Shown here piece after piece: positions 416 to 64,000 of a stretch of DNA of 64,000 bases. A model generated the notes under the pieces. It was not told the origin of the DNA and did no database searches. It was given only the letters and a program-made list of their open reading frames with translations. Source of the stretch: Amoebidium appalachense (taxonomy: Eukaryota; Protista; Ichthyosporea); contig CAVNZM010000013.1 of NCBI GenBank assembly GCA_963693365.1, positions 4,368,722-4,432,721 of the forward strand. Direction: 5' to 3'. Each line of letters begins with the position of its first letter. The first letter of the stretch is position 1. The translations under genes were made by a program, and so were the position numbers.

Positions 416-436
416 GGGCCGGGGGGGGGGGGGGGG

Positions 437-836
437 TTTGAATGCGGAACACAGTACGAAGTACGCATAGACGATGAGAAGCATGGTGCAGGACACATGC
501 AAAGGCAAACATTCAAGTATGCAGCATCAGCCATGCGCACAGTATGCGTCATAAGCAGAGCCCATCCTCAGGGAGGGCCCAAGTCATCAATTGCGTCTGA
601 GTTTCGACCCCTTAGCCCGCGTATATACGACGCTCCAACTCAGACAGCAGCATCAACTGAACTTGGGTGGGTCAACCCGTCTTGATCAAAGACGAGCAGG
701 GTTGCTTATGCAAGCAAGGTGAGCAAAACGGTGAAGATGTGTGTGCAAACTAATGCAGTGCAGCGACAAACGCGTATGTGCTTACAGATGCACGAAACAG
801 AGCAACCATGCCCGGTTGCATGGAAGTAAAGATGTC
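437..836 (-). mobile_element. poly(C)-tailed non-autonomous retroposon-like repeat, subfamily A, near full length (~400 bp)
   Basis: Near-identical in reverse complement to 9574-9978, 49549-49961 and 58141-58539; flanked on both sides by G/C homopolymers; ends ...ccgcattcaaa-(C)n. Confidence 0.9.
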
Positions 837-860
837 GGGGGGGGGGGGGGGGGGGGGGGG

Positions 861-1045
861 TCATAATGTGTTATGGAGCACAAAGTAAATATCCATGACA
901 TGTACAGACAGCACAAAACGCAGACTGTGAAGCCCACATAATGAGAATGCATAATAAACGAAACCCAGCTTCTAGGGGGAACCCAGGTCATCAACAGTAT
1001 CCAAGTTTCGACCCACTGAGCTCGCCAACAAAACCCAAAGGGCAA
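861..1045 (-). mobile_element. poly(C)-tailed repeat, diverged subfamily B-like 5'-truncated copy
   Basis: Reverse complement contains gggtcgaaacttggatactgttgatgacctggg...ttattatgcat... and ends in poly(C); alignable by eye to 34590-34760. Confidence 0.7.
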
Positions 1046-4080: not shown

Positions 4081-13226
<9,146 letters not shown>

Positions 13227-17511: not shown

Positions 17512-17889
17512 ATGCACCTGCACAAGGCCGTACCAGTGCATCTCAACGTAGGCGGCAAGCACTACGAAACTACCACCCATACCCTTTTCAACGTGCACGG
17601 TACCATCTTCCACGACCTTTTAGAAGACGGACGTGGCACAGCTGAAAACCCCATCTTCATCGATCGTGACGGCGAGCTCTTCGAACATGTGCTCAATTAC
17701 ATGCGTGACCCTGCCAATGACGTTGTTTGTGCCAGTTTGACCGCCCTTCCTAAAGCGACCAAGCTGGGTGTTGTTGCCGAGGCCCACTTCTACAAGATCC
17801 ACGGGTTGGTGACTTTGCTGAATTCGGAGCTCCCTGCCATGAGCTCCCATGGAAAAGTCTGGTCTGGTCTTCCGACTAGCGGGCCTTAG
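17512..17889 (+). CDS. KCTD-type BTB/POZ (T1 tetramerisation) domain protein; C-terminus uncertain
   Basis: Motifs VHLNVGGKHYETTTHTL, IFIDRDGELFEHVLNYMRD and EAHFYKIHGLV. Confidence 0.9.
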   Translation: MHLHKAVPVHLNVGGKHYETTTHTLFNVHGTIFHDLLEDGRGTAENPIFIDRDGELFEHVLNYMRDPANDVVCASLTALPKATKLGVVAEAHFYKIHGLVTLLNSELPAMSSHGKVWSGLPTSGP

Positions 17890-18664: not shown

Positions 18665-19245
18665 CTCACGGATGTGCACCCCCAGGCTGGCAGACCATCG
18701 CAAGTGATGGGCTATATCAGGGGAGTTAGTGTTTGTGTGTATACCACCTACCCCACAGGCAACCTCAGGGCCCGTTCTGACCTACCCTCGTTGAAATCTC
18801 ATTCATTACTGTACCAGTTTCGAAGATAGCTCGAGGCCCCCTCCCGGGCCGGCGAGCCGGCGCAACTGGTTCATGCAATGATCATGAATTCGAAACGGTC
18901 AAATGACACTTGGGTAACGTTCGAGGAACCACTGTCTGCTTCAGCCGGGGCCTGAGGCCTTCCTTGTCTACGTGTGCTGCTCAGATACAGCGCGTCGACT
19001 CCCGGACACACGTGTTTATGGTCCTACTGCAACAATGGTGCCTTTGAGAGCCAAGTTTCCCGGTGCTTGAGCTGCCGACATACCCCATTCCAACTTGCTG
19101 GACGTTAGCTTTTGTCTGGTGTGTTCTAGTTCTAGTTATCACAAATTCCGAAGCGCTTGAAGTCTTGGCGTTTCTCAGAACAAGTCCTACTCTTTCCATT
19201 CTCTCCCGTTCTCTTCCTTTAATAGTTGCGGAGGGAACGCACAAC

Positions 19246-19974
19246 ATGGCAGCTGTACATCCAGAAAACGAAACAGCAGCGTGCTTGGTGGAGAAGGGGA
19301 GGCCAACAAGGGCGCAGCTGCACGTGTGGGTACAATCGGTCCAGGCAAAAACGGTGGCAAAGGCAAGGGCCGAAGAGGTTTCAGTGGTTGAGGTGTGTGA
19401 AAAGGGGACACATTTCCTTGTTTTTGAGACTGAACTTACGGAGGTGAGAATGAGGATAGTCCGAGATTGGGTTAGTGGTGGTCAGATGCCGGGGTTGAAA
19501 GAGGCACATGACGGGCTAAGGGCGCTGGTTGAACTGAAAGCAGGGTTTATGTGGGCTGTTTTTCTTGTAAGTGGAGGCTATTTTAGTGGCGGGATCGTGG
19601 AAAATGGAAATTTTAAACAGCACAAATCCTTTCATTTGTACATGCCTGATTTCAAGAAGGGACGGAAAGATAGGAGCAATCACTCGTCATCCTCGGGTCT
19701 CAGGGTTGAAATGAAAACGAAATTCAAGCAGCGACTTGAGGGAATTTTGGGAGAATGGGGCCCGCTGATTGCTAACTGTCAGTTTCTTTTCTGTTATTGT
19801 CCAGGTGAAAACATTAATCTTCTTTCACCATGGGTGACTAGGAATGATACTCGCTATAGGAGTATAAGCTCAAGGATTAGCAATGCATCATACCAAGAGC
19901 TAACAAGGATAGTTGCTGTTTTGGGCTCGGTGCATTTAATCCAGCAGCACGCGCCTGAACCGAATAAAGAGTGA
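19246..19974 (+). CDS. stand-alone divergent VLRF1 (Vms1/ANKZF1-like release factor 1) domain protein
   Basis: First ATG at 19246. WAVFLVSGGYFSGGIVENG...HKSFHLY...SGLR...ILGEW...CQFLFCYCPG...NDTRYRSI...ASYQELTRI parallels the VLRF1 pattern GGHFAG..HKTFHRY..SAGAxLRRYNE..W..I..DxR..IPF..T..EL.R as recalled. Confidence 0.7.
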   Translation: MAAVHPENETAACLVEKGRPTRAQLHVWVQSVQAKTVAKARAEEVSVVEVCEKGTHFLVFETELTEVRMRIVRDWVSGGQMPGLKEAHDGLRALVELKAGFMWAVFLVSGGYFSGGIVENGNFKQHKSFHLYMPDFKKGRKDRSNHSSSSGLRVEMKTKFKQRLEGILGEWGPLIANCQFLFCYCPGENINLLSPWVTRNDTRYRSISSRISNASYQELTRIVAVLGSVHLIQQHAPEPNKE

Positions 19975-26405: not shown

Positions 26406-27619
26406 CTGGTGTGGGTGCGGTATAGTACCCCTCCCCCCCCCCCCCCCTCCCCCAACATGCACACATGCACACACAGACGCACACGCACACACACCACCAC
26501 CACGACCGCCTCCATGCGGCCAGGTGTAGTTTCGAGGGTGTTTGCTGGCGCACACACACATATGAATGCACATTCTGGCCCATGGATGCACAGGCGTCGA
26601 TGGATCTAGTTACGAGAATGATATGCTCCGCGGGCACCATCTACGGTGTATTCCTAGCCAACTGTCATCTATTCGTTACGAATTATTTTTTTTGAATAGT
26701 TAGTTCGCAACTAGCGTGTAGGGATATATATCCAATCTCGATTCACTAAGCGCCATATCGATTATATTATATGTGTTAACCGTATGAACAATAATGCTGT
26801 CAGCAATCGCCTTTATACGGAAGACAACACATACAATATTTATCCAAAAAACACATTGCAAGTCAATCTCCCCGAAGAAAGCAGCTCTAGTAAGTATCCA
26901 GATCTTCTTGTCCAAGCAACTAATATCATGGCATCCACACAAGCATCTACAATAAACTTAGGACTATCACAATTTCCATGCTACCTTCGTTCGCTATGTA
27001 TCTTCATATGGGTTCCTTTGTTTCAAACACCGCGAAATATGGTATCATAACTAGACAGCTATGTAGCTATCATCGCAAGTGCTCCTGATTGCATGCTTTC
27101 TCCACTCACACAGGTGCCGAAATATCTAGACTACTAGCAAAATTTAGAATATTCCCACTTTCTTTTAGTTTTATGGAACCTTTTTTTTCACACATTATAT
27201 CTACAAAACAAACTCATTTATAAAACCAGATCATACAACGTGAAACAATCAATCTAGGTATTGCGGTACCTGTATACACTGTCCATTTATTTCAAGCCCA
27301 TCATTCAAAGAAATTGACTACCATTATCACCTTAGTCTCACACACGACATTACAATTTGGCTACCGTTTGATCTCTCTAAAGCCCATGGGCACGATGTGA
27401 ATGCTGGCGGGTCGCCAGGGGCTTAGTTCGAATACGTTAAGTTTCACCCGGTCAGGTGCACTGGCCCCCAGTGGCAGACTACCCTCTCTATAGGTTAGGG
27501 AGTTGTGGAACTTTGTAGAAGCCCGACTTATGCCCTACTTCTTTGCTTGAGTTTAAATTTCTTTGTTATTGCCTGCTTGCAGGTATCGTAGGCTCCGTGT
27601 TCTTAGATTTTTGCTCCTT

Positions 27620-27896
27620 GAACAAACCTGCATGTCTTTGGTCAAAATGGGTTTGCTTGTCTATTACTGTGAAAACAGAACCGAGTGGAGCCACATGCAA
27701 GAGAGTTAAGACTTGAAACCCATTTTTTTGTGGAGGCATAGGAACCTTTCTGATGATCGCCACTGACCAAGTGTCTTCTGCTGCCCAATTTTTGTTTGTT
27801 CCAATTTTAGGTTTTTATTTAGGGTTTTCATTTTTTGACGTTTTTGGTTTGTCCTTTGGTGTCTCCTCGATATTTCCAACCGTCTAATGCATACAT
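27620..27896 (+). mobile_element. poly(C)-tailed repeat, subfamily C, long diverged copy
   Basis: gaaacccattttttgtggaggcataggaacctttctgatga...ggtgtctcctcgatatttccaaccgtctaatgcatacat-(C)n; parallels 59670-59843. Confidence 0.8.
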
Positions 27897-33958: not shown

Positions 33959-34509
33959 TGTGCGGGGTTGCACATACCGGTGTCTACTTTTCTTCTTACT
34001 GTTTTTCTCTCCACACACTTCATCTGTCCACTTCTGCATACCCCCTTTCATAGCTATAGACACACTTCACACATTGCGTTACGCGCACGCATGCACACAC
34101 CGCTCTGTTGGCGACAGCTCCCTTGGAACCCATGCGGCATGTTACCCGCCGGCGTAACATAACTCGGACTATCGGTTTGGCTTTTTTCAAGCCCAAAGCA
34201 ATGGGTGATACCATATTTCCGGCTGACATCCGGGGGCATAGCTTTCCGTTCGAAGACGATAAAGTTCCGCCCTAGTAAGCGTGTTACTACCCTGCGGCGT
34301 GGGTCAAATCTCATATTTTCCCCTCTGATTACGAATTCTGTGGCCTTCGGGACTTAATTCTTTTCAGCTGGTGTAGTATGTTAGCCAGGGAAGTATCGAC
34401 TTAGGTATCGACGGGGGAGCTTCCTAGAAGCCCCGTCTCCTGAGTTCCTATCTATATTTTTCTTGCTTCTGCTTACTGCTGCAACTTTAACCCCCGGCCT
34501 TTCCCACTG

Positions 34510-34760
34510 CCCTTGCCTGCATAAGCAACCCTGCTCGTCTCTGATCAAGACGGGTGACCTACTCATGTTCAAGTGAAACAGTATCTGAGTTGGGTTTCGT
34601 TAACGAGGGGAATAGGTCGAAACTCGGGTACTGTGGATGACGTGGGCCCCCCCTGAGGATGGGCTCTGCTTATTATGCATACTCTTTATGTATGGCTTGC
34701 ATTCTGCATCGTGTTATCCGTTTGTTCTTGTGTACTTCGTACTTTTTGACGCATTCAAAA
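34510..34760 (+). mobile_element. poly(C)-tailed repeat, subfamily B
   Basis: Shares gcataagcaaccctgctcgtct..gatcaagacggg with subfamily A; 3' half near-identical to 58572-58740; ends gcattcaaaa-(C)n. Confidence 0.88.
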
Positions 34761-34790
34761 CCCCCCCCCCCTCTCCCCGCCCCAATCCCT

Positions 34791-34993
34791 ATGGTGTCTT
34801 CTCCATACTTCCAACCCCCTAATGCATTATTCCCCCCCCCCCCCCCCCCCCCCCCCTCTTCCCGCGTGCACAGGGGTGACTAGGCCTTTCCCTAAGGATT
34901 TGCTGTGCATAATATGCATACCCTTTATGTGTGGTTTGCACTCCACATTTTGTTTTTCCGTCATAAATGTCTACCCCGTACCTTATGACGCAT
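34791..34993 (+). mobile_element. two further short 3' fragments of the family (C-type 34791-34831; B-like 34860-34993) chained through poly(C)
   Basis: tggtgtcttctccatacttccaaccccctaatgcat and ...cttatgacgcat, each followed by (C)n. Confidence 0.65.
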
Positions 34994-37472: not shown

Positions 37473-38144
37473 GCACCCAGACACACACACACACACATTG
37501 ATGCTTACGCATTCCTCCTTCAATTCTGCTCCACAGACTAGTAGTCGGGTGTAGGGAAGTCAGGGTAAATCATCCCTGGCTGGGTCATCTGATCAAACCA
37601 ACGGCTATTATTCTGTAGCCTGAGTTGCAGAATTTTTGATGGTCGAAATCACGGGCTAAAATTAGAGCGCTCATCACGTTATTGACTTATTGCTTGATTT
37701 CTCAAATCAAGTTTTGCCGATGGAAGTTCTAATCTCTATAGGTATTCCTTCTGTTTCATAAGCTGGCATACAATTTTGTTTATCGATTGAAGTCTGCGTC
37801 TTAAAATAGTGTGTGGCCACCTTGCTTTTCTTACCATGGGAACCATCATTTCAATTTCTTTGTCCAGGATCGGTTGACTATTGCATAACGGTACAGTAAG
37901 GGAGAGCAAGTGGTGTGAAAACCATGGCACGTGCTGCATGACCTATGTCGCTGACGTCTCTGACACCCCCTCCCAGATCATGGACGTAACCCTCCGCCGG
38001 GTGTCTGACAATCAGCCAATCAAATGTCGAGTAGCCCTCAACATCCACAGGGATGTGTTTGGATTGCCTGTGGTCATATCGGCAGTCCACATCCCGTATC
38101 CAAACGTGTCAATCCCTTCCTTTCCGGACCTTACAATCATGTGA
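35222..38144 (+). CDS. C-terminal exons of an ERT1/RDS2/AcuK-like PAS-fold protein (N-terminus not resolved; may be a pseudogene)
   Basis: Phase-0 GT-AG exons 35222-35290, 35703-35843 and 36759-36839 give [81 protein letters not shown]. The segment ~37946-38144 gives [26 protein letters not shown], resembling the RDVFxIP end of fungal gluconeogenesis Zn-cluster factors. The acceptor of the last segment is not evident. Confidence 0.6.
35452..35525. repeat. ~38-bp tandem duplication
   Basis: agggaagtgccatcgtattaacctatttggtgggtt occurs twice. Confidence 0.9.
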
Positions 38145-39577: not shown

Positions 39578-39781
39578 TTCTGACGTCTCTAACACCCCCT
39601 CCCAGATCTTGGACGTAACCCTCCGCCGGATGTCTGACAATCAACCAATTAAGTCTCGAGTTGCGTTCGTCGTCCACAGGGATGTCTTCGGTTTGCCTGT
39701 TGTCTATACAGCGGTGCACATGCGCATGCCCTATCCGAACGTGTCGATCCCGTCATTCCCGGATCTTGCAATTATGTACGC
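39578..39781 (+). pseudogene. paralogous copy of the PAS-gene terminal exon
   Basis: [42 protein letters not shown] after ttgtag; many differences from 37950-38140 fall at third codon positions in the + frame. Confidence 0.6.
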
Positions 39782-40286: not shown

Positions 40287-40289
<3 letters not shown>

Positions 40290-40789
40290 TATTTGTCTGA
40301 CGCAATTTCATCCATGCACCATGCGCCATCATGCATGCTCATCATTTGCAATTGAACAACAGAAACGTGACTGTGACACATGATAGTATGGCAATTCAGA
40401 CACACATGCCATGGAAGGCACATGCGCGTGTGCAGATTTGTGCCAGAGAATTTGGGAGCTCTCCAAATCACTGACACACACACACACAACACACACACAT
40501 GCACACAAATGCACACACAGGCAAACCCGCACTGAGACACACATGCACAGTGACACCCACACGTGTACACGCACCCTCTTCAGAATCCCTAACACACACG
40601 TGAAATGCCATGTAATCCTGCACATGCTAAGCGCATTATGTCCACACAGCTTGCACATGCCAGCACGACGTTTACCCGCCTGGTAGTGTCACTGCCAGGC
40701 CACTATAGTGATTAGCACCGGCCCGGGTTCGCATGCCCACCCACCTTAGGCTTTTTTGATTTCGAAACGGGGAGGGGGGTCGTAGTAAA

Positions 40790-40831
<42 letters not shown>

Positions 40832-42242
40832 CCACCACCCCTCCGCTGGCTGGGTAAGGGGAGAGGGGGGGACCCACCACCACTCAGGGGGGTGGGGGGT
40901 GGGGAGGAGGGGGGAGGAGGGGGCTACCCAAATATTACTAATATATACTAGTATGTATATTGGATACCAACTTGAAAACATATTGGCATGGCACATAGTA
41001 TATCCACCAATTGTAATCAATTATCAGGCCCTGGGTCAAATTGGACCTGCTTACTAGCTAGGCATCCCCCTCCCCCCCCTCCCCCTCCCCCCCCCCCCCC
41101 CCCCACCCTCCCCCCTCCCTCCCTCCCCTTTCTACGCCCCTCTTAAGATCTCATACCGAGACCGGAATGACTGGTTACTCATGACCACTGATTTTCTCGA
41201 CAATATACAGTAAAGCACCTTTGCACACGCAGGCACACACACGTGCGTGCACGCTTTCCAATACGCTCATGATCACAGACTGCCGTAGGGCAATATGCAA
41301 TTCTCTGTGGTGGCACATAATGATGCGCGCGCGCACACGTGGCACACATTCCGAATTCCTTTTTTCATCTCTAACTGCTTCCCCTTAATACCCCCCCCTC
41401 CCCCCTTCCCCCACCACCACCAACATCACACCACCACCACCACCACCGCGCCCTCTTCAAGTTTTCGCTCTTTATCTATCCCCCCCCCCCCCCCCCCCCC
41501 CCCCCTGGTTATTTGTCTGGCGCAATTGCATCCATGCATCATGCGCCATCATGCATGCTGATCATTTGCAATTGAACAACAGAAACACACACACGCACAT
41601 ATTATGGCAATTCAGACAGACGCGTGCAGATTTGTGCCAGAGAATTTGGGAGCTATCTCAATCACTAACACGCACACACACAACTTGAGACACACGCACA
41701 CATGTGCACACAAACGCCGCGACACACAGGCAAACATGCACTGAGACACACATGCACAGTGACACCCACACGTGCGCACACACCGGGCCCTCTTCTCTAG
41801 CACACACGTGAAATGCCATGTAATTTTTGCACATGCTAAGCGCATTGCGTCGTGACACAGCTTTGCACGTGTGGCACGACGTTTACTTGCACACTGTCCA
41901 GGCCACCACAGTGATTAGGAGTGCCGAATGCCCGCCCACCTTAAAGACACATACACACACGGTCCCACGTCTACACCGCAAAAAATTGCAGACGCACACT
42001 CCCAGTGACATGTTGTGCATAATAGATTTGCCTTAACTTTGTCAAAATTCGAAGTGCTGGTTAAAACGAAGGGAAGAAGACTTGGTACAAACTTAATGTT
42101 GGTGATCGTGGTTGATGAGAGGGGGGAGGGGAGGGGGCGGGGGGAGGGGGGGGGGGGGGGGGAGGGGGGAGGAGGCGAGCGTCCCAGAACTTGAGAGGGT
42201 ACGCAGCCGCGGCCGGCGCGGAGGGGCCCTTTAGATTCCCCG

Positions 42243-42371: not shown

Positions 42372-42775
42372 GGGGGGCACCACCCCGGTGGTCAGCTTAG
42401 GGAGGGGGGGGACCCACCACCAGGGGGGACCTCAATACTTACTACTGCCCACCCCCCCATTTCAAATTCAAAAATGCCTTACGGACACATACACACACGG
42501 TCCCACGTCTACATACACCGCACAACATATTGCAGACGCACACTCCCAGTGACATGTTGTGCATGATAGATTTTCCCTAACTTTGTCAATTCGAAGTGCT
42601 GGTTAAAACGAAGCTAGGGAAGAAGATCTAGTACAAACTTAATGTTGGTGATCGTGGTGGATGAGAGGGGGGGAGGGGGGGGGAGGGGGGGGGGGGGGGG
42701 GGGGGGACCCACCACCAGGGGGGACCTCAATACTTACTACTGCCCACCCCCCCATTTCAAATTCAATAATGCCTA
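40287..42775. repeat. patchwork of local direct duplications delimited by poly(G/C) tracts
   Basis: 40287-40745 resembles 41507-41942; 41946-42120 resembles 42485-42667; 42410-42478 resembles 42705-42775; recurrent ggacccaccacc motif. Confidence 0.85.
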
Positions 42776-48624: not shown

Positions 48625-50089
48625 CTCCCCCCCCTCCCCCCCCCCCCCCCCCCCCCCCCCCGCCCCTCTCCTCCTCGACCTGCTCCTGAGCCGCCTTACT
48701 TTTTGGCCAGTAGCTTCTTTCTTCTGTTGCCTCATTCCAGTTTTCATGCATGCATGCTCTTGTTGCTGTTACTTTTCTGGCCTCTGATCTTAAATAATCT
48801 CCCCCCCCCCCTCCTCCTCCTCCCCCTTGCCCCCCACCCCGGTCCCTCACCTTCCGGTCTTCCCGTCCCCTGTCCCCTTGTCTACCACCCTTCCTCTACT
48901 CCGAATTCGTTAAACCCCCCTCTCCCCCGGACTGACACATACAGATAAACAACTTGCTCTTCTCTCTCCTTTGGTCTTCCCTTAACCCCCCACCTCCCCC
49001 TCCCCCCCCCCCCCCCCCCCCTCTCCCCCGGCCCTGAATATGTAATCATACTGTTTAACAGACTCCATCCCCCCCCCCCCCCCCCCCCCCCCCCTCCCCC
49101 CCCCCTCCCCCTCCCCTTCCAAACCAAAAAAAAAAAGCCACGAAACTTTACCTTGCAGTGCCTGTTTGCACCCTTCCCCCCTCCCCCCCCCCCCTCCCCC
49201 CCCCCCCCCCCCTCTCCCCCATTCATCCCAGGCCACGCCTCGTCCCCTTTCTTCTTCAATGTTCTTTCACCGTTGTGAATTGGTGTATATCTGAGCCCTC
49301 GTCCTTCTCCCTTGCCAGGTTCCCTGTGCATTGTGTGTGTGCGTGTGTTTGCGTTTGCATTTTTCACTTGTGTCTGCACTCTGCATCATCCTCCCCCCCC
49401 TCCCCCCGAGGTTAGGCTTCCCCCTGTTTGATTTCGGGTTTCTCATTTTTGTGACGTTTTGTTGTTGTCCTCTGGTGTCTCCTCCATATTTCCAACTCTC
49501 TAGCGCATACATCATGCCCCCTCCCTCCCCCCCCCCCCTCCCCCCCCCTCCGGAGACATCTTTACTTCCATGCAACCGGGCATGGCTGCTCTGTGTCGTG
49601 CATCTGTAAGCAGACACGTATTTTTCGCTGCACTGCATTAGTTTGCACACACAACTTCACCGTTTTGCTCACCTTGCTTGCATAAGCAACCCTGCTCGTC
49701 TTTGATCAAGACGGGTTGACCCTCCCAAGTTCAGTTGATGCTGCTGTCTGGGTTAGAGCGTGTATATATGCGGGCTAAGGGGTCGAAACCCAAACGCAAT
49801 GATGACTTGGGCCCTCCCTGAACCTCCCTGAGGATAGGCTCTGCTTATGACGCATACTGTGCGCATGGCTGATATTGCATACTTGAATGTTTGCCTTTGC
49901 ATGTGTCCTGCACCATGCTTCTCATCGTGTATGCGTACTTCGTACCGTGTTCCGCGTTCAACCCCCCCCCCCCCCCCCCCCCCGGGAGGTCGGGCTGTAC
50001 TTATGGTGTATATCCTCTGTGTGCTTTGCAATCTGCTTTGTATTGTCCGTGGCAAATGGTTAACTCGTACTCTGAAGACACATTACTAT

Positions 50090-53577: not shown

Positions 53578-60274
<6,697 letters not shown>

Positions 60275-62495: not shown

Positions 62496-63804
62496 CTACC
62501 GTGGCTTCACCACCACCACCTTCCCGTCCTCACACGCACACACAATCCTCTCCCCAACCACACACACGTCCGCAACAGCCGTATTGAGCGGCAATTTAAA
62601 CCTTATCTCCCTAGACCTCTCCACCGGTACCCCATCGGACCCCCCCTCCCCTGCCGCTCCGGATCCCCCCCCATTCGTAGCAGTGCATTCGTAAATGACC
62701 AAAGCGGAATCTCGCGAAACGTCGACCGCGATCACGCAATTTTTGGAAACGGGATAGGAAATTATGCTCTCCCCGCGTATGACAGACACGCGTTTCCCCG
62801 TGGCAGGGTTAAAGAAACCGTAGTAAATGTCCTGCTCCGAAGTTTGGTAATCTTCATACGCAACCATAATCAGCCCGCAATCGGGCATCGGGAACACGCG
62901 GTGCGCGAGGACCTGCGGCGATCCAATCGAAATTTCGGTAATTACGTCGCCACCCAAACTCACTAGGCATAACACGTCGTCCCGTGTGAATACCAACATC
63001 TGGTCGAAAAACCCGAACCGATCTATGTCGTCATACCCCCGGAATTTGCATATCTGTCCCTTTGTCTGCAAATCCCACACGTATATAATTCCGGCCATGC
63101 CGACGGCCAGCGCCCTCCCGTCGATCGCAACAGTGTTCACGCGATTTTCCTCCTGAAAGAATTTGCCCTCCTCCCGACCGCTTTCGGCGTCAAAAACTAC
63201 GACATCGCCGTTGCTAAATCCGGCGGCTACAAAATTTCCATTTATGACGACGCAGCACACGGGCCCGCTGTGGCGTGGGGGGGAGGTCCATTTTTCCTCG
63301 AAATTTCGCATATCCCAAACTTTCACCGCCTGGTCTATCCCGCCCGACACGATGAATTTCTCGTCCGCCGCAACACAAAGCACTGCGGCATGACTGCCTT
63401 CGCTATCCAACACAGTCATATCCCAATCTGAATTTTCCCTCTGCAAAATTCCCGGAAGTTGTTCAGAAAACGGCAACGGGACACAGAAAAAATCGAATTC
63501 CTCGCAAAGACGCCCTTCCTGAATATTGGGGGGTATATCCCATCTACGGCTACACCCACATCGTAGATAGTCCAACAGGCACGAAAAAACGGCGGGGTCT
63601 CTATCGAGGAAAATTTCACCGTTTTCGTTTTTTCGCAAGGGGTGTCGGCCGCTGAACCAGGCAGCGAGCATGGAACTTCGGCTAGCCGTGAGGGTCTTTC
63701 GGGTTGTTTCGATTAAGGAACCCCCTACTCGAAATTTGACTATCTCTTGTTGCGACTCGAAGTCTAGTTGCTCCAGCCAGCGTGCTTCTCGATCGAACTT
63801 CTCC
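62496..63804 (-). CDS. KCTD-type BTB domain plus WD40-repeat protein, large terminal exon (5' exons outside the window or unresolved)
   Basis: Acceptor cacag at 63805. EIVKFRVGGSLIETTRKTL...SMLAAWFSGRH...IFLDRDPAVFSCLLDYLR...EEFDFF (BTB), then SHAAVLCVAADEKFIVSGGIDQAVKVWD and further WD40-like blades. Confidence 0.9.
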
Positions 63805-63824
63805 CTGTGTATGTGTGTGTGTGT

Positions 63825-63855
<31 letters not shown>

Positions 63856-64000
63856 GGGGAGGGGGGGAGAATGGGGGGATGGTAGTGATGTGCACGGTGA
63901 GGGGGAGAGGGGAGGGGGGGGGGGGGGGGGGGGGGGGAGGGTACGATGTGTGTCTGTGTGTGTTTGGGGGGAGGGGGGGGGAGGGGGGGGGGGAGGGGGG

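Follow-up and report, generated by a model that had tools for sequence, protein, structure and literature searches.

A stretch of 64,000 nucleotides (nt) from Amoebidium appalachense (contig CAVNZM010000013.1, positions 4,368,722 to 4,432,721, forward strand; here called the window) contains a dispersed repeat that ends in a poly(C) run and carries a conserved RNA domain. Self-comparison separates three subfamilies, A, B and C; A is about 410 nt long and has four full copies, and B is at least 790 nt long. We read the domain as a complete hammerhead core, in a non-circular order, assembled from four strands and opened between A9 and G10.1. This ribozyme probably cleaves itself after a GUU triplet (34591 in subfamily B) in transcripts of the short repeat, which would be a non-autonomous Penelope-like element (PLE) of the Naiad/Chlamys type. 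As a selected fold the domain is very likely real, and its sequence marks it as a candidate new hammerhead variant. The parts of the domain in subfamily B are given below in window coordinates; two-sided changes are those in which both bases of a pair differ between subfamilies.

34518..34531, + strand: 5′ strand of P0, the outer helix that closes the domain beside A9; three two-sided changes from A to C
34533..34555, + strand: 5′ hairpin, without two-sided changes, ending one base before G10.1
34556..34561, + strand: predicted stem II 5′ strand (10.1–10.6), the "pseudoknot" strand of an earlier note on this DNA
34562..34571, + strand: 5′ strand of the outer (canonical) kink-turn stem; partner 34638–34646
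34572..34577, + strand: bulged strand of the putative kink-turn, with the 3-nt bulge AGU and G1b A2b A3b; partner G3n G2n A1n at 34635–34637
34578..34591, + strand: stem III 16.x strand (13 base pairs, bp, with 34622–34634) and site triplet GUU (34589–91); predicted cut 34591/34592
34592..34594, + strand: stem I 1.x strand; partner 34650–34652 (3 bp)
34597..34606, + strand: perfect 10-nt palindrome in the linker between stems I and II (hairpin or intermolecular duplex)
34613..34634, + strand: stem II 3′ strand (34613–18), G12 A13 A14 A15.1 C15.2 (34619–23) and stem III 15.x strand
34647..34659, + strand: linker, stem I 2.x strand and core C3–A9, CUGAGGA (34653–59)
34661..34679, + strand: P0 3′ strand; its first part overlaps a rival stem II partner at 34662–34667

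The core letters C3 U4 G5 A6 N7 G8 A9, G12 A13 A14, A15.1–U16.1 and H17 are complete in five copies from the three subfamilies. Position 7 is the sole difference among the intact cores, with CUGAUGA in subfamily C compared to CUGAGGA; this position varies in hammerheads generally. Along the strand, the stem II 5′ strand is followed by the site GUU, by GAAAC, and then by the stem I 2.x strand with CUGAGGA, and the gap between A9 and G10.1 is occupied by two helices, P0 and the 5′ hairpin. Stems II (5–6 bp) and III (5–13 bp) and the short stem I stand in register around the core, and each of the three has two-sided changes; in subfamily A stem I is 4 bp long, with an A-U/G-C change at pair 3.

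A descriptor of this split core matches the five window copies and nothing in 30 block shuffles of the window. Applied to 140 control loci chosen for carrying core words (37 metagenome, 4 and 85 viral, 14 prokaryote; 158,524 bases), it gave two minimal matches, in one metagenome sequence (stems 4/5/4), with none in the viral (4 and 85 loci) or prokaryote (14 loci) sets and no long stems among the 37 metagenome loci. The metagenome scan used a spacer of 30–55 nt, which fits C and not A or B (28 nt), and is therefore uninformative on relatives of A and B. Two of the metagenome loci (L004 and L036) carry a canonical minimal hammerhead (CUGAUGA, an extra U, stem II and GAAAC) in an inverted repeat, like PLE ends.

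An Rfam search, suggested by the earlier note, gave no gathering-score match in the window and weak matches around the fold and the 5′ part of B. The best match to Hammerhead_1 was weak (14.2 bits compared to a threshold of 34, E 4.5); in it the model aligned the upstream strand as stem II. The block order is site, GAAA, CUGANGA, and not the circular order of hammerhead types I, II and III (clan CL00010). No tRNA was found in the window. The CUGAUCA in the loop of the 5′ hairpin was rejected as the CUGANGA block, as G8 is absent and the letters are held in a hairpin.

The earlier note had proposed a conserved, strand-specific, pseudoknotted fold under selection at the RNA level, and this is borne out by the covariation counts and by an excess of G-U pairs. 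Of its 22 quoted fold words, 21 were found exactly and at the implied places (B 34556–34646; A 9719–9837, 58283–58384 and, on the − strand, 541–719; the copy at 49746/49787; C 59588–59704). The outer-stem word given for C, 'ttcctatgcttc', holds as to its interruption by a C run and not as to its letters: the C copy reads TTCCT, the C run and then TATTGCTTC, one T longer. The outer stem itself is real, with compensatory changes at five of nine pairs and 0–1 nt between it and stem II, and is better drawn as 6 bp, a bulged U and 3 bp, followed by a putative kink-turn that had been missed; P0 (34518–34531 with 34661–34679) had likewise been absent. The words of the inner hairpin stand as perfect 10-nt palindromes in A and B, and the hairpin is weak or absent in B2, B3, C1 and C2.

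In each pairwise comparison 37 paired positions were scored. All two-sided changes still pair (A/B 6 of 6, A/C 14 of 14, B/C 13 of 13), counts that come from three to four independent lineages only, with helices and registers picked from the same sequences, and that are not phylogeny-corrected P values. The subfamilies differ at 17 (A/B), 33 (A/C) and 31 (B/C) of 74 helix letters. One pair of 37 is broken per comparison, compared to 9.3, 17.8 and 17.2, respectively, expected when the same number and kind of changes are placed independently (0 of 20000 simulations each); the C row of P0 combines strands drawn from two different C copies. In an eight-row MAFFT alignment, in which the 5′ part of C1 is misplaced, two-sided changes occur at 18 of 51 pairs compared to 9.0 in shuffles, and 87% of cells pair compared to 37–42% with the partners slid.

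Wobble pairs had also been said to be specific to one strand. The pair counts agree, since 13 G-U versus 4 A-C in 124 cells favour the + strand of B, but folding z-scores of the whole domain fail to separate the two strands (B −1.09/−0.48; A −2.65/−2.74; a second A copy −0.61/−2.08; C −0.32/−0.64). The strand was assigned because of the orientation of the core words, not because of energy. A DNA cruciform was considered and rejected. The stems are very likely real and under selection for pairing.

One part of the earlier interpretation is not the best-supported one, namely that the upstream strand forms a pseudoknot competing with stem II and thereby a conformational switch. This strand is better read as belonging to stem II itself: it opens with G10.1, pairs with the letters directly 5′ of GAAAC, and covaries with them at positions 4–6 (CG CG ag in A, CG UA AU in B, UA UG UA in C). 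It lies 36–37 nt before the cut (56 nt in C). Among variants mapped onto B, 34560 T>C and 34614 A>G have similar depth in one sequencing run (1419 and 1434). The rival partner 3′ of CUGANGA consists of six letters that are identical in all three subfamilies and is partly engaged in P0; the duplex energy in B is −2.6 kcal/mol for this partner compared to −7.3 kcal/mol for the upstream strand. With a 2-nt insert allowed, A and C could also use the 3′ partner; in B this pairing is weak.

Between stem III and the outer stem, four of five copies (A, B, B2 and C1) have a 3-nt bulge and tandem G-A/A-G pairs after the canonical stem, a feature not seen in the 5′ strand of the decayed C2. The arrangement fits the sequence pattern of a kink-turn, by the consensus in PMC5435971 and PMC4382518. 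It differs from the standard kink-turn at 3b-3n, where A has U-U and B2 has A-U. A full-text literature search found no paper in which a kink-turn is paired with a retroelement hammerhead.

The S, G, C order of the blocks (site, GAAA, CUGAnGA) is that of the type-SGC hammerheads. With the non-circularly permuted types SGC and CSG (Eckert et al. 2023, PMC10085705) the present fold shares the cyclic order of the blocks, the link between the site strand and the stem II 3′ strand, and a helix that joins the strand following stem II to the one preceding stem I (labelled 'I' there and outer stem here). That paper assumes that block C is uninterruptible, whereas here it is opened at A9/G10.1 with two helices in the gap; in addition, the outer helix here would continue stem III through a kink-turn, and the linker is about 20 nt long and contains the palindrome, compared to about 3 nt in the published types. 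The SGC examples described there are environmental sequences; none is from the genome of a known organism. The minimal hammerheads of PLEs and the retrozymes without long terminal repeats (PMC4209133; bioRxiv 10.64898/2026.07.22.740005) are also small hammerhead-bearing repeats tied to PLEs; a dimeric activity has been proposed for them, and the 5′ end of their stem II has an unpaired base, at the spot where the core opens here. They have the type I circular order and an unstable stem III, whereas the present order is non-circular, with a long, stable stem III.

Naiad and most Chlamys elements have been reported to be without canonical hammerheads, and eight Naiads are marked 'HHR_half_core', with the second half of the core 35–50 nt off on either side (Craig et al. 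2021, PMC8557442). In eight Naiad consensus records from the supplement of that paper the split order can be read by eye, with different strand sequences; this is not a systematic count. The records preceding the Ovul and Omin headers combine, by eye, the split order with a kink-turn pattern that faces the other way, and in those preceding the Aacu, Anas and Movir headers stem III measures 13 bp and the outer stem 10 bp. One Naiad record places the 5′ hairpin immediately before G10.1 and P0 immediately after A9, as here, and records around the Nbra and Hcon headers have an unbroken CSG order (both by eye). Compared to the octopus Naiad, the putative kink-turn of the present fold is reversed and lies about one helical turn farther from the core. 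Within the text portions of the SGC, Naiad/Chlamys and retrozyme papers, and in a search without most subscription journals, neither a core opened at A9/G10.1 nor a kink-turn in a PLE hammerhead was described.

The window has a G+C content of about 52%, with many (CA)n and (CT)n tracts and long C runs. Leaving out bare C-run matches, 19 fragments of the repeat were tallied, three of them the references, and two further short ones were seen outside the tally. A covariance model built from six rows recovered the known copies and no convincing new subfamily among 14 matches at E up to 1; its sole match outside the known copies (40666–40720, E 0.12) is without core words. The copies that bear on the argument are as follows.

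33968..34760, + strand: subfamily B copy, at least this long (a (GT)n run upstream of its 5′ end was masked in the contig comparison), followed at its 3′ end by a poly(C) run (34761..34771)
436..836, − strand: subfamily A, full, intact core; first base after the predicted cut 636
9573..9979, + strand: subfamily A, full; first base after the predicted cut 9779
49549..49961, + strand: subfamily A, full; pair 1.1-2.1 broken, short duplication ahead of the core
58142..58539, + strand: subfamily A, full; first base after the predicted cut 58343, outer stem damaged
9429..9552, + strand: B-like copy (B2), ending at its own internal C run, where an A copy begins
58572..58740, + strand: B copy, 98.8% identical, starting 1 base ahead of the predicted cut
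838..1038, − strand: diverged B copy, starting 2 bases ahead of the predicted cut (two T may be flank)
59585..59843, + strand: subfamily C, intact core; first base after the predicted cut 59644, C run expanded within the outer stem
27612..27896, + strand: subfamily C, decayed; P0 5′ strand and 5′ hairpin kept

Seventeen of the 19 fragments (references included) end no more than 6 nt from the 3′ end of the family and are followed by 16–25 C per 25 bases, while their 5′ ends differ. Variable 5′ ends combined with a common 3′ end before a C tail are the pattern of target-primed reverse transcription from C-tailed RNA, and we infer that the copies were made in this way. A shared 3′ end, 5′ truncation, a microsatellite target and head-to-tail copies, as looked for in a non-autonomous Penelope-like element, are all present. 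Microsatellite targeting, 5′ truncation and head-to-tail copies are shared with Naiad/Chlamys and with partners such as MRC1; (C)n is named as the target of Chlamys, whereas Naiads mostly target (TA)n (PMC8557442). Both A and B end in AAC/AAA just before the C run, and three Chlamydomonas records similarly end in AAC before C runs. No Pfam match was obtained in any open reading frame (ORF) of the B copy, and neither an ORF nor a pair of pseudo-long terminal repeats (pLTRs) with a reverse transcriptase was found for the repeat in the window.

The predicted cut lies within 2 nt of the 5′ start in two of 12 short copies, both of subfamily B (1 and 2 nt before the cut), which a hand estimate puts at a chance of about 3% and which we take as a hint only. 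Each of the four full A copies is bounded by C runs on both sides, as a circular, tandem or uncut template would predict. A and B are deeply covered by contigs of four sequencing runs, and in contigs of three of these the A 3′ end is joined to the A 5′ start across 42 letters. Chains of A, B and C copies occur at 58142–58942, 34761–34993, 9429–9979, 49425–49961 and 344–1038, each copy starting in the preceding C run and each chain keeping to one strand. A retained-intron-like stretch, with GTAAGC upstream and a pyrimidine-rich stretch ending in TAAG within the P0 5′ strand, is present in A (about 9630–9712) and B (34276–34525); subfamily C is without an AG at the corresponding 3′ end. Introns are known in the pLTR of Penelope and of Chlamys-3; no intron-skipping joint for the A/B stretch was found in contigs of the sequencing runs examined.

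In the mechanism that we propose, P0 and the 5′ hairpin would hold A9 beside G10.1 and so replace the missing backbone link. Stem III, the kink-turn and the outer stem would make up a rod; the site and GAAA strands would lie at one end, and CUGANGA and the stem II strand would be attached at the other by 0–3 nt. Active cores would then arise by strand exchange between two adjacent units of a tandem transcript, with the palindrome assisting, and cleavage would release unit-length RNA starting at 34592. With priming on the internal C run, a partner reverse transcriptase would turn linear RNA into copies beginning at the cut, and ligated or uncut RNA into copies that extend from one C run to the next.

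The strand-swapped dimer is tentatively favoured, somewhat short of an even call, over a monomer with an opened outer stem, because the gap in the monomer exceeds its reach, because of the palindromes, and because minimal PLE hammerheads have been proposed to work as dimers within tandem transcripts (PMC4209133). By a rough trigonometric estimate with assumed helix dimensions, the gap in the monomer is 51–68 Å compared to a reach of 24–30 Å, while the long helices of the dimer would be 13–26 Å apart. The estimate uses 2.8 Å per pair, coaxial stems II and III and a kink angle of 30–70 degrees. By the same estimate the compact version of the octopus Naiad is borderline as a monomer (25–40 Å compared to 36 Å). 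The palindromes differ in A and B, a length of 10 nt being reached in 73 of 5000 and 42 of 5000 shuffles, and palindromic loops have been noted for repeat-type hammerheads. A stricter version, to which we give distinctly less weight, is that of a hammerhead designed as an obligate dimer: the rigid kinked rod would part the core halves, and only two adjacent units, locked by the palindrome and possibly gated by a protein binding the kink-turn, would cut.

Several observations weigh against this overall picture. The minimum-energy fold of B is without the 5′ hairpin and the outer stem as drawn, and stem I is just 3–4 bp. Ten of the 12 short copies begin past the cut (+17 to +163), several of them at an internal C run, and five long copies begin 200–624 nt upstream of it; the head-to-tail joints could be explained simply by the insertion of a copy into another's C run, as at 58539–58942. 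No reverse transcriptase or GIY-YIG match was found in the 140 of 462 stop-to-stop frames of the window that were scanned. By eye, the last ~500 nt of eight Chlamydomonas Chlamys consensus records contain no split-core motif, a result that makes a connection with the (C)n-targeting clade less secure. As to the dimer, the palindrome is no longer than 6 nt in B2, B3, C1, C2 and one A copy, the distances come from trigonometry and not from a 3D model, and a similar unresolved distance is found in some SGC ribozymes, a class whose tested members cleave (PMC10085705). Stem II, finally, is open to a different assignment, with a descriptor of plain SGC type likewise fitting all five copies with intact cores and the 3′ partner forming the stronger duplex in C (−7.1 compared to −5.1 kcal/mol). 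These last two points would suit a plain type-SGC hammerhead with a switch, in which stem II is made by the six letters two bases past A9, and the upstream strand, P0 and the kinked outer stem are an off state that needs to open. The descriptor fit requires a 2-nt insert, and inserts of 1–2 nt beside CUGAnGA are permitted in PMC10085705; changes in the 11.x strand are compatible with the 3′ partner in A and C (U-G/U-A). That partner strand is invariant, however, and in B makes four pairs, two of them G-U, whereas the two-sided changes fall on the upstream strand; in the octopus Naiad, by eye, the 3′ partner makes just 2 bp and the upstream strand 6 bp. We consider this arrangement quite improbable.

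The cleaving split core could also work as a monomer whose outer stem and kink-turn open or bend, the kink-turn serving as a protein-binding brake or scaffold; this is possible if rather doubtful. The linkers of 15–16 nt are, by hand estimate, long enough once the outer stem is unpaired, SGC ribozymes have cleaved as single constructs (PMC10085705), and the palindrome is not kept in C; the outer stem, on the other hand, is maintained by its compensatory changes, and its close junction with stem II fits a formed helix better than a linker. The short stem I, the GUU site, the geometric strain and the far-upstream starts of the long copies could instead point to a catalytically retired scaffold derived from a hammerhead, which would bind the reverse transcriptase or a protein of the Snu13/L7Ae family, or end or stabilise the transcript. 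Such a scaffold is improbable, given that all core letters are kept, with position 7 alone varying, though the subfamilies differ at 17–33 of 74 helix letters, and given the two copies that begin at the cut. It is very improbable that the domain is a kink-turn element resembling a selenocysteine insertion sequence (SECIS) or a small nucleolar RNA (snoRNA), or a set of DNA-level palindromes, with hammerhead words by coincidence. A resemblance to a SECIS core lies in the GA/GA quartet with its 13-bp helix. Some Naiads do carry SECIS elements (PMC8557442). Against this, Rfam returned neither a SECIS nor a snoRNA match, whether at gathering score or with E as high as 10, there is no upstream ORF, stems I and II and P0 would be left unexplained, and the split-core descriptor has no match in shuffles. 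A SECIS identity was rejected on the missing Rfam match and upstream ORF. The preferred reading is the split-core hammerhead that cleaves in transcripts of the repeat.

Elsewhere in the window there are scattered frames for BTB, BTB-WD40, VLRF1 and PHD domains. The long uninterrupted ones are a VLRF1-domain frame (19063–19974, +), a BTB-WD40 frame (62496–63998, −) and a BTB frame (17512–17889, +), without close relatives found: homolog searches with the VLRF1-domain frame returned nothing, and the BTB-WD40 protein gave WD40 matches at just 24–36% identity, plus eukaryotic BTB clusters. This lack of close relatives suggests a eukaryote from a poorly sampled group. A lone PHD finger (13113–13226, +, E 6e-8) is about 38 codons long and ends in a stop; it lies directly after a (CA)n tract ending in CAG, and looks like a last exon. 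PHD fingers are known in some Chlamys elements; no link to the one in the window was found. A second repeat family (40287–40715 and 41506–41918, +; about 77% alike) has each copy directly after a long C run, or ending in a G run if read on the minus strand, and no hammerhead core words were seen in it by eye. Further pairs are a third repeat (41939–42160 and 42477–42706, +; 88% alike, ending in G runs) and a duplicated stretch (37951–38142 and 39580–39777, +; 81% alike) that overlaps open frames and has one weak PAS_13 match (E 7e-4).

The window contributes three subfamilies that have diverged enough to define the helices by covariation, together with a reversed, more distant putative kink-turn and a poly(C) target. 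If the domain cleaves, the hammerhead core would tolerate a break at a junction assumed to be unbreakable in the paper that defined the permuted types (PMC10085705), and a large clade of retroelements reported to be without canonical hammerheads would carry one that descriptor searches miss, with a bearing on the role of hammerheads in Penelope-like retrotransposition. An obligate dimer would allow the element to process tandem transcripts yet spare monomers or circles. If the reading is true, the split-core hammerhead of animal Naiads would also occur in a probably non-animal eukaryote, in a family that targets poly(C).
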